DNA of 32,000 nt. It comes from Promethearchaeia archaeon. GTDB taxonomy: Archaea > Asgardarchaeota > Lokiarchaeia > Sigyniarchaeales > SOKP01. Positions within the stretch are counted from its first letter, which is position 1, and the number at the start of each line of letters is the position of its first letter. Under the pieces are notes generated by a model. It was not told the origin of the DNA. It saw only the letters and a list, made by a program, of their open reading frames with translations, and did not search any database. The stretch lies in NCBI GenBank assembly GCA_046497275.1, contig JAWOFX010000064.1, forward strand, positions 12,447 to 44,446, in the 5' to 3' direction. Position numbers and translations under genes: made by a program. This document shows positions 25,879 to 32,000 of this stretch, in pieces.

Positions 25879-25936
25879 AAATTAATGAGTAAATCTTAAA
25901 ATCTTAATTTTTAGGAAAAATATTATTTTTAAAAAG

Positions 25937-26041
25937 TGCTTCTGCCGGGATTTGAACCCGGGTCACGAGGGTGAGAGCCTCATATGCGAAGTCCTAAAAT
26001 TCCTAAGAACCTTTAGATTGACCGAACTACACTACAGAAGC
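25937..26041 (-). tRNA. tRNA-Glu(CTC) with a 30-nt intron in the D arm; CCA not encoded
   Basis: Acceptor GCTTCTG/CAGAAGC-A, anticodon arm TGAGG-CT CTC AC-CCTCG, T arm CCGGG-TTCAAAT-CCCGG. Removing the insert restores the D stem GTGT/GCAT. Confidence 0.95.
25988..26017 (-). other. Non-canonical tRNA intron at position 21/22
   Basis: Helix GGTC/GACT flanked by 3-nt bulges AA|T and TC|G, with intron helix CTAAAG/TTTTAG (relaxed BHB). Confidence 0.85.
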
Positions 26042-26196: not shown

Positions 26197-27213
26197 TTAC
26201 TTTATAAAAATAGGTTTAAGCAAATTCACATAATGATCCCTAATTGAGTATTCTGCAATTTTTGTAGATTCAGCTATAAGTTTTTGCGTCAGGACGGATT
26301 TTTGTTTGTATCTTTTTGCTAATAATTTATCAGCGAGATATATAACTGCCCCTGCTAAAATAAATGGATTTCTACCAGCTCTTTTCCACATACTTAAGTT
26401 TTTTAGTATGGACATAGACATATTCATTAAATGGATTTGAAATTCTTTTTTAGACCAATTAATTCCCTTTTTACATAATCTTTTTGTAAGATTTTTATGA
26501 TTTATTATTTGATTCACCAGTCGATTTAAATAGTCTTCACTTTTATGAGGTTTAGTTTTTATATCTAAGAATTTTTTGTATTTTAAACCGTCTCTTAACA
26601 TCAATCTTGGATTAACCCTATGACCGAATTTTTGAAATGCATTTGAAATTTCATTAATAGTTATAGGAGCATTATGGTTTTCTTCTCTCGCAGCTAAAAA
26701 TATGCAAAATGCTATTAAAGATATGTTATTTATGATTTCATTGTCATTTTTTATTATTTTTTTATAATAGTATGCTGCATTATTTCGAATATTTTTATTT
26801 AAATCTAAATAAATTGATATTTTATTTAATATATTAAAAATTCTATATTCTGTTTCATGATTTTTAATTCGAAGAAATTTCGAATAATTCTTTTTTAACC
26901 GACGATAAAGTCTTTGATCATTCGGAGATAGAAGATTTCCAGATTTATCTTTAAAAAATTTAGTTTTTTCATATCCAATAAAAGATCCTAATCCCCCTAC
27001 AAAATCTGTCCTATTTCCTAATGCTACATATTGTTTCGATAAATTATTATTTCTACTGTCTGTTTTAAAACTATAAGATGAATCCTTAAATATTTTATCA
27101 ATCACCAAACCACAGGCACCACATACAATTTCTCTACTCTTAATTATCGTTGATCCACCACATTCGGGACAAATGCCCTCAACTGAAGTATTATATATTA
27201 TTTTTTCATTCAT
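26197..27213 (-). CDS. Divergent TFB/TFIIB-family paralogue
   Basis: CPECGG...CGACG Zn ribbon, cyclin folds (LIAFCIFLAAR; GRNPFILAGAVIY), C-terminal TQKLIAE...IRDHY. Confidence 0.85.
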   Translation of the reverse strand: MNEKIIYNTSVEGICPECGGSTIIKSREIVCGACGLVIDKIFKDSSYSFKTDSRNNNLSKQYVALGNRTDFVGGLGSFIGYEKTKFFKDKSGNLLSPNDQRLYRRLKKNYSKFLRIKNHETEYRIFNILNKISIYLDLNKNIRNNAAYYYKKIIKNDNEIINNISLIAFCIFLAAREENHNAPITINEISNAFQKFGHRVNPRLMLRDGLKYKKFLDIKTKPHKSEDYLNRLVNQIINHKNLTKRLCKKGINWSKKEFQIHLMNMSMSILKNLSMWKRAGRNPFILAGAVIYLADKLLAKRYKQKSVLTQKLIAESTKIAEYSIRDHYVNLLKPIFIK

Positions 27214-27960: not shown

Positions 27961-28650
27961 ATGGTTCGTTTTACAGCAGATCATAAAGTATACATAAAAA
28001 TTCTCTATTGGGGAATGGGTGGATCGGGAAAAACAACGATCGTTGATACTTTATATCGATTAACTAAAGAAAATAAGAAAGATATAGAGCCAACTGGAAA
28101 TTTAACAAAAATTTCTATGGCTAGTGGATCAACTTTATATTTTGATCGAGGTATTTTTCAATCAACAAAGCAAAGAAAAGTCTTTTACCATGTTTATACA
28201 GTTGCAGGTCAAAATAGATTTTCTCCATTAAGAAAGAAAATATTTAAAGGAACTGATGGTGTGATTTTCACAGTTGATTCCCAAACACATTTTTTTGAGG
28301 ATAATATTGAATCTTTAAAAGAATTGAAAAATGTCACCAGAGGAAAATTGATTAACGAGATCCCCTTAATTGTTATGTTAAATAAACAAGATCTTACGGA
28401 AGTTATTGGTGAAGAAGACTTTAAACAAATCTTAAAAGATGAAAAACTTTGGTATGAGCCAGATAATGAATTATATATTTGGAATCCAATAATTTATAAG
28501 ACTTGTGCTTTATGGGACAAGAAAAAGGATATTTATAAAAGTTTTAGTGAATGTGCGAGAAGAACGGTTCTCTATCAGATTTATGGAAATGGGAGCGCTC
28601 CTGTTGGAGATGATTACTCTAAATCCTCTGAGGATTTAGATAAATTTTAA
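27961..28650 (+). CDS. MglA/Arf-like small GTPase
   Basis: KILYWGMGGSGKTT, STLYFD, TVAGQ, NKQD and TCAL motifs. Confidence 0.92.
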   Translation: MVRFTADHKVYIKILYWGMGGSGKTTIVDTLYRLTKENKKDIEPTGNLTKISMASGSTLYFDRGIFQSTKQRKVFYHVYTVAGQNRFSPLRKKIFKGTDGVIFTVDSQTHFFEDNIESLKELKNVTRGKLINEIPLIVMLNKQDLTEVIGEEDFKQILKDEKLWYEPDNELYIWNPIIYKTCALWDKKKDIYKSFSECARRTVLYQIYGNGSAPVGDDYSKSSEDLDKF

Positions 28651-28746
28651 GTCTTTGTAAATCTTTTAAAAGCGTTGATAAAATTTATTTTGGATAAACG
28701 CTTATATTTTATATATTAACTGAAGAGGGATTCCCAAGGTTATAAA

Positions 28747-28819
28747 AATTCTATGAAATAATTAGACAAGCTTGACCTACAATAAGTAGGAATGAAAGAT
28801 TATAGTTACTTTGAGGATT
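28747..28819 (+). ncRNA. Dual-guide box C/D-like sRNA with variant boxes
   Basis: C ATGAAAT (28753), 12-nt guide, D' TTGA (28772), stem CCTAC/GTAGG, C' ATGAAAG (28792), 12-nt guide, D TTGA (28811), terminal stem AATTC/GGATT. The D guide is antisense to LSU helix 69; TATA-like TTTATATA at 28708. Confidence 0.8.
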
Positions 28820-28930
28820 ATTAAAACCTTAACCCTCTCTCTTTAATTTATTATATATTTAATTGTGAAATGATAATTTTTTTAATTTTTGGAATTTTTA
28901 TTTAATAAATAAAATAATTGTGGAAACAAA

Positions 28931-29110
28931 ATGGGTTTATTTAATAATATAAAAGATAAATTGCCTAAACAATTCTCTATTTTTCAATTTATGATTGTTC
29001 TTGGAATTGGCGCCTCGAAAGTAAGAATAGCTAGAAATTTACTTAAACAATTTCATCAGAAAGGATATATAAAGAGAATAGGTAAAAATATGTATGAAAA
29101 AATAAAATAA
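28931..29110 (+). CDS. Small winged-helix protein, 59 aa (absent from the ORF track)
   Basis: Manual translation: MGLFNNIKDKLPKQFSIFQFMIVLGIGASKVRIARNLLKQFHQKGYIKRIGKNMYEKIK. Confidence 0.7.
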   Translation: MGLFNNIKDKLPKQFSIFQFMIVLGIGASKVRIARNLLKQFHQKGYIKRIGKNMYEKIK

Positions 29111-29121
29111 TATTTCTAAAA

Positions 29122-29703
29122 TTAAGTTTTAAGTATTAAATTCGGGAATATTGCACCTAATATTTTTTGAAATGAATCATATATTCCTTCTCCAGAAATA
29201 GCAATAGTGTTTTGAAATGATATCTGGTTGAAATCGTCAATTCCCAACTCAGAAATGAAACTTTCTTGTTTTAATTTGTCCTCTTTTTTTAAATCATTTT
29301 TATTAAAAGCTATCAATACTGGGATTTTATACAGTTCATTTCCAAAGAAAAATTTTAATTCTTCCCATGAACGTAAATTTCTTTTAAAATTCCTTTCATT
29401 AGAATCTACTACAAATATAATTCCATCCACACCTCTGAGTGTCGCTGGTCTAGTACTGATATAAAAATCTTGACCTGTGGCAGAATATACTAATAATTTT
29501 AAATTCCATTCTTTACCGCTAAAAATTAAAGTTCCAAAATCAAAAAATAATGTTCTTCCCACAGAATTTTCTATTGATTTTAAATTATGTTTTTTATTAT
29601 AAAAATCAAATAAATATTTAATAGAGGTCGTTTTCCCTGACATAGCGGGGCCATAAAATACTATTTTTACTTGGATTATTTTTTTCTCATAATCATAAAT
29701 CAT
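29122..29703 (-). CDS. MglA-like small GTPase
   Basis: KIVFYGPAMSGKTT, GRTLFFDF, SATGQ, NKND and TIA motifs. Confidence 0.92.
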   Translation of the reverse strand: MIYDYEKKIIQVKIVFYGPAMSGKTTSIKYLFDFYNKKHNLKSIENSVGRTLFFDFGTLIFSGKEWNLKLLVYSATGQDFYISTRPATLRGVDGIIFVVDSNERNFKRNLRSWEELKFFFGNELYKIPVLIAFNKNDLKKEDKLKQESFISELGIDDFNQISFQNTIAISGEGIYDSFQKILGAIFPNLILKT

Positions 29704-30616: not shown

Positions 30617-31630
30617 CTATTTGATTACTAGTTCTCCAATTAGATTCTTTATATCAAATACTCTTTCTTTTTGATTTCTTTTTGCATTTTGGATCAATTT
30701 ATCTAATTTATTCAAAAATTGAGGTAAATATAATCTAATTAACCCTAATTTTTGGCGTGATTTACCCACTTCGGAACTAAAAACAGCATTGTTTATCTCA
30801 TAAATGAAATGAAATGAATTCGTACAGTCTAATAAAATATTTTCAGCAGTCATTTTCTTTAAGGCCCACGCACATCTATTAGCAGTTTGAAAAAGTGAAT
30901 AACTCATAGCAGATATATTGTCTATTTCATTTTCATCAAAATAGGTTTTTCTCAATATTTTATTTATTATAAAACCCCCCTCTAATGATAATAATGCATA
31001 TTTTAAATCTAGAATAGTTAATGAAAAATTATTCAAGATTTTATTTAATTCCCAAGATAATTGCTCTGAGATATCCAATGAAAATGATGATAGTTTAACA
31101 CTTTCTTCATTATTTTTCTTTATACTAAAACTTTCCAAAATATCTCTAATTTTTGTGCTATTAAACTCAATAAGAGGAGGTTTAAAAGATTCACCTGAAG
31201 TTATTAAAGTTGTTTTGATATTTTTTAAGCATTCATTGGTCTGTAAGAAAATCCCTCCTAAATTTACATTTGGTTGAGCTGTAATGGCAATAAAAAACTC
31301 GTGATTATCTTCGATTATTCCTTGTTTCTCCAAAATTTTATTCAAAGAACTATGAATTGGATTATTTAGAGGTGCAATTAATATTTTTGCCTTTTTACCT
31401 TCAATCAAAATATATTTAAGATCATCAGGATGTAAGTTGATTCCAACATTAAATATTGCACTAGCTGCTGAACTGACATTAAATATCTCCTCCTTAGAAA
31501 ACCAAACTCCAGCAGACTGAATTGGATTCCCATCTCTTTGAGTTAAAACTGCATTTTCGACCCCTTTTAATTGTTTTATTTGATCCAAGTGTATTTTAAT
31601 TTTTTCTTTGAGATTCATATTTATCAGCAT
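30617..31630 (-). CDS. Tandem Roadblock/LC7 (MglB-like) domain protein
   Basis: N-domain GVENAVLTQRDGNPI...SSAASAIF...ILIEGKKAKILI; C-domain YALLSLEGGFII...ISAMSYSLF...ILLDCTNSFHFI. Confidence 0.88.
   Translation of the reverse strand: MLINMNLKEKIKIHLDQIKQLKGVENAVLTQRDGNPIQSAGVWFSKEEIFNVSSAASAIFNVGINLHPDDLKYILIEGKKAKILIAPLNNPIHSSLNKILEKQGIIEDNHEFFIAITAQPNVNLGGIFLQTNECLKNIKTTLITSGESFKPPLIEFNSTKIRDILESFSIKKNNEESVKLSSFSLDISEQLSWELNKILNNFSLTILDLKYALLSLEGGFIINKILRKTYFDENEIDNISAMSYSLFQTANRCAWALKKMTAENILLDCTNSFHFIYEINNAVFSSEVGKSRQKLGLIRLYLPQFLNKLDKLIQNAKRNQKERVFDIKNLIGELVIK

Positions 31631-31756: not shown

Positions 31757-32000
<244 letters not shown>

Follow-up and report, generated by a model that had tools for sequence, protein, structure and literature searches.

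The window analysed here, a stretch of 32,000 nucleotides on contig C1 of an Asgard archaeal assembly (3.85 Mb, 30% G+C, 188 contigs), carries at 28747–28819 on the + strand a small element that lies in a 280-nt gap between one + strand ORF that ends at 28650 and another that starts at 28931. The window ORF list holds no ORF of 30 aa or more that overlaps the element. The genes around it, at 27961–28650, 29122–29703, and 30617–31630, are two Arf/Ras-family small GTPases and one Roadblock/LC7-domain gene, and such genes are typical of the 'eukaryotic signature' set of Asgard archaea. A TFIIB gene is found at 26197–27213. Two further structures occur just upstream: a 10-bp terminator-like hairpin (28618–28640) overlaps the end of the upstream GTPase ORF, and the interval between that GTPase gene and the element holds a perfect inverted repeat of 7 bp (AAGCGUU/AACGCUU, loop of 20 nt; 28670–28703).

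The contig ends about 60 nt into a 16S rRNA gene (AUUCCGGUUGAUCCUGCCGG..., 31939–32000), and the element thus precedes this gene by 3.1 kb on its own strand. The corresponding locus is 3.0–3.7 kb from a contig end in most relatives; in G005, a genome of the same genus, the 16S gene starts about 4 kb downstream of it, and in genus g8 the locus lies some 5 kb upstream in the opposite orientation. The window also has, on the minus strand, a tRNA-Glu(CUC) gene (25937–26041) whose D arm is enlarged by an insertion of about 31–35 nt, probably an intron of non-canonical type. The Infernal alignment takes in all 105 nt of the gene and has a perfect acceptor stem, and ARAGORN calls a shorter gene of 75 nt (25936–26010).

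Architecture and conservation of the element

The first-pass annotation had described 28747–28819 as a dual-guide box C/D sRNA of the archaeal type, and its reading of the sequence is exact in every box, guide, bulge, and stem. In the 5' to 3' direction the element consists of box C, AUGAAAU (28753–28759); a D' guide of 12 nt, AAUUAGACAAGC (28760–28771); box D', UUGA (28772–28775); a 5-bp hairpin, CCUAC-aauaa-GUAGG (28776–28790); box C', AUGAAAG (28792–28798); a D guide of 12 nt, AUUAUAGUUACU (28799–28810); and box D, UUGA (28811–28814). A 5-bp closing stem, the C-stem, is formed by AAUUC (28747–28751) and GGAUU (28815–28819).

A DNA search recovered the element at 74–88% identity in about 23 relatives from many genera, and the covariance model built from these relatives found a match, mostly in single copy, in 89 of the 126 genomes of the same family and in two of the three genomes of another family of the class. 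All four boxes keep their GA dinucleotide without exception in 23 orthologues. In an alignment of 50 orthologues, 85.8% of the cells in the named helices are paired, compared with 76% in shuffled alignments (none of 500 shuffles was as high), and when the pairing partner is slid along the sequence the paired cells fall to 29–57%. Changes on both sides are observed at 15 of the 19 helix pairs. The hairpin that closes the C'/D' K-turn is paired in 98% of cells and has both-side changes at four of its five pairs, and the two innermost pairs of the C-stem are formed in every orthologue with letters at both positions (C-G, U-G, or U-A at one pair; C-G with one U-A and one U-G at the other).

The conserved structured RNA is longer than this box C/D core and reaches from P0 to P0' (28725–28837, + strand), as indicated by the fold, the covariance model match, and the orthologue alignment. 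The z-score of the 136-nt fold is −3.2, the covariance model match covers 28719–28843 with 126 bits, and the orthologue alignments cover 28725–28837. Helix P1 pairs AAGGUU (28736–28741) with AACCUU (28825–28830) and has compensatory changes at most of its pairs, for example AAGUU/AACUU, or AAAAGUC/GACUUUU in family f6. Helix P0 pairs GAGGG (28725–28729) with CCCUC (28833–28837), and in genera g1 and g11 covariation is seen in the flank duplexes (GGAGUU/AACUCC, GGAAUU/AAUUCC, and GAGGG/CCCUC). P0 is a lineage-limited helix and less certain than the others, a fixed alignment pairing only 55% of its cells.

The result is a long interrupted terminal helix with the order P3, A-rich internal loop, P1, one-sided bulge, and P0. 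We rejected a bulge-helix-bulge reading of this helix, as that motif calls for two 3-nt bulges 4 bp apart and this helix is interrupted by 1x1 A.A mismatches and by 4–6 nt bulged on one side only. A TATA-like sequence, TTTATATA, at 28708–28715 implies a start near P1 that would leave out P0, yet P0 covaries in g1 and g11, and T-runs occur downstream of P0'. The true start may be farther upstream, or a longer transcript may be processed to yield the RNA. We infer that the three-part terminal helix (P3-P1-P0) is a stability or processing element, and it is possible that in this class the long helix serves sRNA biogenesis as a dedicated signal for processing or circularisation.

Both K-turns have the 3-nt bulge and the closing stem that had been claimed for them. 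The bulge is U-A-U (28752–28754) in the C/D K-turn, which is closed by the terminal stem, and AAU, directly after the GUAGG strand of the internal hairpin, in the C'/D' K-turn, which is closed by that hairpin. At the level of sequence, tandem G.A/A.G pairs are possible in each and are followed by A-U and A-U, which stand in place of the canonical U.U and G-C. The four boxes (AUGAAAU, UUGA, AUGAAAG, and UUGA) thus differ from the canonical RUGAUGA and CUGA, at three of seven positions in C and one of four in D, with the C5-D2 and C6-D1 pairing kept.

Binding of L7Ae was reported to require a terminal stem, two sheared G.A pairs, and the box C uridine (PMC7994747). All three are present in the element: AAUUC and GGAUU directly flank the boxes, their pairs covary or are invariant in the 50 orthologues, and the U of AUGA is kept in 49 of the 50. 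Box C/D K-turns fold only with L7Ae, and a Watson-Crick pair at 3b.3n blocks just the ion-induced folding (PMC5689011, PMC4382518). The AUGAAA/UUGA K-turns are predicted to bind L7Ae, and the genome has the machinery of the RNP, with neighbouring genes for Nop5 and fibrillarin on contig C102 and a gene of the L7Ae family on C43. The fibrillarin locus has its nearest named counterparts in Promethearchaeota MAGs and in Candidatus Harpocratesius, which, with the signature genes around the element, makes the host a Lokiarchaeia-type Asgard archaeon. We know of no test of A-U pairs at both 3b.3n and 4b.4n in a box C/D RNP.

Predicted targets in helices 69 and 71

The genome's own 23S gene is absent from the assembly, and the targets were read on a 23S fragment (domain IV) of the same-genus genome G005 and on the full 23S of G030, G150, and G132. 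The D guide forms 11 contiguous Watson-Crick pairs with AGUAACUAUAA, the loop of helix 69, in the 23S of G005 and G030, and in three other genomes with both the sRNA and a 23S it forms 8–10 bp with helix 69. By the N+5 rule the predicted site is the second A of UAAC, E. coli A1913, which lies opposite the fifth nucleotide of the guide counted back from box D. The earlier claim of an 11-nt match to helix 69 with A1913 as the predicted site is thereby upheld on the same-genus 23S and on three other 23S sequences of the family. No variation is seen among 23 orthologues in UAUAGUUA, the core of the D guide, and the spacer to box D is 12 nt in all orthologues with correctly located boxes. When the D guide was shuffled, 7 of 2000 sequences reached 11 bp anywhere in 23S and 16S.

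Helices 68, 69, and 71 are known hotspots of archaeal methylation (PMC4644070). The yeast methylation Am2256, guided by snR63, is two nucleotides before pseudouridine 2258, which was equated with E. coli 1915 (PMC2794176). A1913 therefore corresponds to Am2256, as the first-pass annotation had it. The first-pass annotation names SNORD46 as the human guide for the equivalent site. The 23S gene of another member of the family (locus L099, G132:C1:570625-574067, minus strand) exceeds that of G030 by about 260 nt; its helix 69 loop is interrupted right behind GUAACUAUA, where the sRNA would pair, by an insertion that is probably an rRNA intron.

The D' guide had been assigned to a 1948-equivalent in a helix 71 with the eukaryote-type loop CUAAUUA. 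Neither part of this assignment agrees with the same-genus 23S, in which helix 71 is ordinary, CUUGUCUGGUAAG, and where that loop was inferred the sequence reads CCUUGUCUGGUAAGUUCAGAC, a helix 71 of the usual archaeal/bacterial type. The D' guide pairs there with CUUGUCUGGU, the 5' strand of helix 71, over 10 bp, of which 8 are Watson-Crick and two are adjacent G.U, and this duplex may be marginal in the genus of the window. Its N+5 position is the G of CCUUGUC, 32 nt from A1913 with no indel, which gives G1945 and not the 1948-equivalent, the guide pairing through the two G.U. The same 32-nt offset leads to yeast G2288, which by our own count in the yeast alignment we take to be the equivalent of G1945. 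Gm2288, guided by snR75, is a mapped yeast site (PMC5199042). A published supplement lists archaeal guides to the alignment position 23S G2211 (PMC4644070), and this position is G1945 if the stated offset, A1912 = A2178, is free of gaps.

Both guides thus have, on the same-genus 23S, a complementarity of about 9 bp or more with the N+5 position inside the duplex. Among the four genomes with both the sRNA and a 23S (the same-genus genome and three others), the D' guide forms 9–11 bp with the 5' strand of helix 71 in three. The D' guide of genus g11, AACUAGACAAGG, forms 11 bp and that of g8 forms 9 bp, and 3 of 2000 shuffled D' guides reached 10 bp within 100 nt of helix 69. Part of genus g2 has a diverged D' guide with no convincing match in 16S or 23S. 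At the g2 loci L100 (G150), L012 (G026), L020 (G032), and L025 (G007) a different sequence (UAACUAAUAUAC) or a shortened one (AAUAGAUAAU) stands in place of the D' guide, the D guide being retained.

Layout, conservation, covariation, and guide matches together bear out the proposal of a dual-guide archaeal box C/D sRNA. The locus is very probably the gene of such an sRNA in a Lokiarchaeia-type Asgard archaeon (Promethearchaeota), with the equivalents of A1913 and G1945 as its predicted methylation targets. The two K-turns would bind L7Ae, and a Nop5 dimer with two fibrillarins would assemble on both. Pairing of the D guide with the helix 69 loop would direct methylation of the ribose of the A1913 equivalent, and pairing of the D' guide with the 5' strand of helix 71, 32 nt further along the rRNA, would do the same for the G1945 equivalent.

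The question then is whether methylation is the main role of this RNA. It could instead be a C/D-type RNP RNA that acts as an rRNA folding chaperone and holds helices 69 and 71 during assembly of the 50S subunit, or only its D guide could be catalytically used in the genus. The two targets are 32 nt apart in domain IV, such roles were proposed for dual guides (PMC4644070, PMC7994747), and the D' duplex of the genus relies on two G.U pairs, with the D' guide lost in part of g2. Against a chaperone, both guides keep the exact 12-nt spacing to their D boxes that is the geometry of N+5 methylation, and both predicted sites are methylated in yeast. We therefore regard these variants as improbable, although they come closest to the preferred reading of a methylation guide for both sites.

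Box covariation and the limits of pattern searches

The boxes of the 50 orthologues form a graded series. The combination of box C AUGAAA with box D UUGA is observed in 33 orthologues, AUGAUA/UUGA in three, and AUGAGA/UUGA in two. Genus g8 has AUGAUG/CUGA (three orthologues), with C'/D' also canonical (GUGAUGA/CUGA); family f6 has AUGACG with CUGA or CAGA (two orthologues); and one genome has AUGAGC/GCGA. Further cases with A-U are GUGAAA/UUGA, AGGAAA/UUGA, and AUGAAA/UGGA, the last from a degenerate second copy. The mismatched exceptions are AUGAUU/UUGA (two) and AUGAUC/CUGA (one). Box D by itself is UUGA in about 43 of the 50, CUGA in five, and CAGA, GCGA, and UGGA in one each, and box D' is AUGA in most orthologues, UUGA in the genus of the window, and CUGA in genus g8.

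Positions 5 and 6 of box C covary with positions 2 and 1 of box D. The C6-D1 pair is A-U in 40 orthologues, G-C in five, C-G in one, and unpaired in three (one degenerate second copy was not tallied). The claim that the box changes are compensatory is thus correct, since all but three of the tallied orthologues have A-U, G-C, or C-G there. In the single variant with two GC pairs, AUGAGC/GCGA, both neighbouring pairs have changed together. The result is a natural covariation series of the K-turn, with G-C, A-U, and C-G at 4b.4n and U.U, A-U, G.U, and G-C at 3b.3n, and it shows selection on pairing and not on sequence identity at these two positions.

Elsewhere in the phylum the same RNA is found with AUGAUGA/CUGA and with AUGAAG/CUGA, and AUGACA/UUGA occurs in an unrelated family. 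Because canonical-box orthologues exist, the AUGAAA/UUGA state of the window is derived; it would have arisen, in most of the family, by a compensated change from G-C to A-U in an AT-rich genome. The derived boxes could also be those of a decaying, non-functional relic of a canonical sRNA, degenerate through relaxed selection in the family, and the departure from consensus at three of seven positions in C and one of four in D, together with the silence of Rfam, is what such decay would leave. The guides and the GA dinucleotides are, however, invariant or nearly so over dozens of genomes from at least ten genera, the box changes are compensatory and not random, and all stems covary. We consider a relic very unlikely, well behind the chaperone or one-guide variants, and retain the reading of a functional sRNA with compensated boxes.

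The reach of the helix 69 guide was followed with the unit TGA-N6/7-ATAGTTAC-NN-TGA, which is found in 166 of 400 genomes of the phylum; four other families have it in all of their sampled genomes (22/22, 6/6, 5/5, and 5/5); a backwards control pattern gave about 0.1 matches per genome. Across the phylum the unit is mostly combined with CUGA. The loci inspected in five other families are complete dual-guide sRNAs, and in four of the five the D' guide is of the same type (...GACAAGG or ...GGCAAG), that of family f19 being different. Other families thus have full orthologues in which canonical boxes accompany the same two guides. Judging by these matches, the helix 69 guide extends across the Asgard phylum, and the UUGA/AUGAAA boxes belong mainly to the window's family.

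The first-pass annotation had also stated that standard searches miss this RNA, and this was confirmed with both Rfam and canonical box patterns, neither of which detects it. At gathering thresholds no curated Rfam family matches the element, the SNORD46 and snR63 types included, and at E values up to 10 the only matches are spurious, the best being snR66 with 19 bits against a cut-off of 65. It was further suggested that a whole class of sRNAs with variant boxes may be present, for which a genome-wide search was proposed. The strict double RTGAAA/TTGA pattern has one occurrence in the 3.85-Mb genome. A looser dual-guide pattern has 15 intergenic matches with spacers of 11–13 nt, compared with 19, 9, and 10 at wrong spacings, and at the exact 12/12 spacing there are four matches compared with 1, 2, and 0 in the controls. 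Reversed sequence is unsuitable as a null for these statistics, as the frequencies of TGA and AGT differ. Since the loose pattern is not enriched over the wrong-spacing controls, the layout alone is weak evidence, not above chance in an AT-rich genome.

The other 14 intergenic matches were judged by eye, and none has both a terminal stem and a hairpin. Units of C-box, 12 nt, and D-box with at least 9 bp of rRNA complementarity number 40, compared with 29–34 for reversed or antisense rRNA, which is no enrichment, and a whole-genome scan with 10-mers found short rRNA matches to be common in this AT-rich genome. Because there is no enrichment over controls, the pattern scans have neither found nor excluded further variant-box sRNAs. 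At least two other sRNA candidates, C69:17213-17278 and C50:13052-13108, have canonical RUGAUGA/CUGA terminal boxes, and with no other locus of the full architecture found in the genome the suggestion of a whole variant-box class is not borne out. The C69 candidate has a degenerate D' box (UUAA) and the D guide UGUUGCCCCAAU. In the 16S leader of the window, about 75 nt before the mature 5' end, an element at 31803–31866 (GAUGAUGA ... CUGA) has a 4-bp flanking stem and, instead of an obvious D guide, an internal hairpin UUAUAGC/GCUAUAA; it may be a C/D-like element of the pre-rRNA leader or may be due to chance.

That the element at 28747–28819 is a chance arrangement of TGA words in AT-rich intergenic DNA, or a MITE, terminator, or leader structure, would agree with the equal frequency of the loose pattern at wrong spacings and with the abundance of short rRNA matches, and is effectively refuted by its conservation and covariation, its textbook-box orthologues, the phylum-wide guide unit, and its mostly single-copy occurrence at a syntenic position, in most relatives some 3 kb ahead of the 16S gene. 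MITE-like sRNAs of the Pyrobaculum type are multi-copy and non-syntenic with conserved flanking inverted repeats; here there is nearly always one copy per genome. It is thus the comparative evidence, and not the layout, that is decisive, and on that evidence the element is a real, conserved, and previously unannotated box C/D sRNA. A few relatives have two copies, at two loci each in G074, G076, and G095 and in tandem in G075 (G075:C77:38571-38767); one of the G095 copies is degenerate, with UGGA as box D and an altered guide.

Relation to known guide RNAs

Our literature search yielded no account of box C/D sRNAs from Asgard archaea. With the archaeal dual-guide sRNAs of the Pyrococcus, Sulfolobus, Methanocaldococcus, and Pyrobaculum sR families the element shares the order C-guide-D'-linker-C'-guide-D, the 12-nt guides, the terminal stem, the tandem G.A motifs of the K-turns, a target in the domain IV hotspot, and the presence of L7Ae, Nop5, and fibrillarin genes in the genome. 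It differs from them in its boxes, AUGAAA(U/G) and UUGA in place of RUGAUGA and CUGA; in its C'/D' motif, a full K-turn with a covarying 5-bp hairpin where the sR families usually have a K-loop; in a terminal stem that extends as an interrupted helix of about 16–20 bp (P1 and P0); and in its host, a mesophile-type AT-rich Asgard lineage. A conserved sRNA family has been missed by standard box-based finders and by Rfam, and for sRNA annotation in AT-rich archaea RUGAWA/UUGA boxes should be allowed.

The closest relatives are the canonical-box orthologues of the sister genus g8 and of other Asgard families, which have the same two guides in the same order and spacing. Their boxes are AUGAUGA/CUGA, GUGAUGA/CUGA, or intermediates such as AUGAAG/CUGA, and outside the class their terminal stems are shorter. 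Archaeal target sites are reported to be generally not conserved (PMC6009581), and a predicted guide for helix 69, the bridge helix of the decoding site, is here kept across a whole archaeal phylum.

Yeast snR63 (Am2256) and snR75 (Gm2288), with their human counterparts, have the same predicted target positions in the rRNA as the element, G1945 being equated with Gm2288 by our own count. They differ in that one RNA of the archaeon would serve both sites, for which yeast uses two snoRNAs, and there is no detectable similarity in sequence or to the Rfam models. It is conceivable, though on balance we doubt it, that the dual guide for A1913 and G1945 is an ancient Asgard-wide sRNA and that the eukaryotic methylations Am2256 and Gm2288 were inherited from the archaeal ancestor and are not convergent. 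If this were true, it would be one of a very small number of guide-target pairs that can be followed from archaea into eukaryotes. As both predicted sites are 2'-O-methylated (Nm) in yeast 25S rRNA, the ancestry of eukaryotic rRNA methylation becomes testable in cultured Lokiarchaeia.
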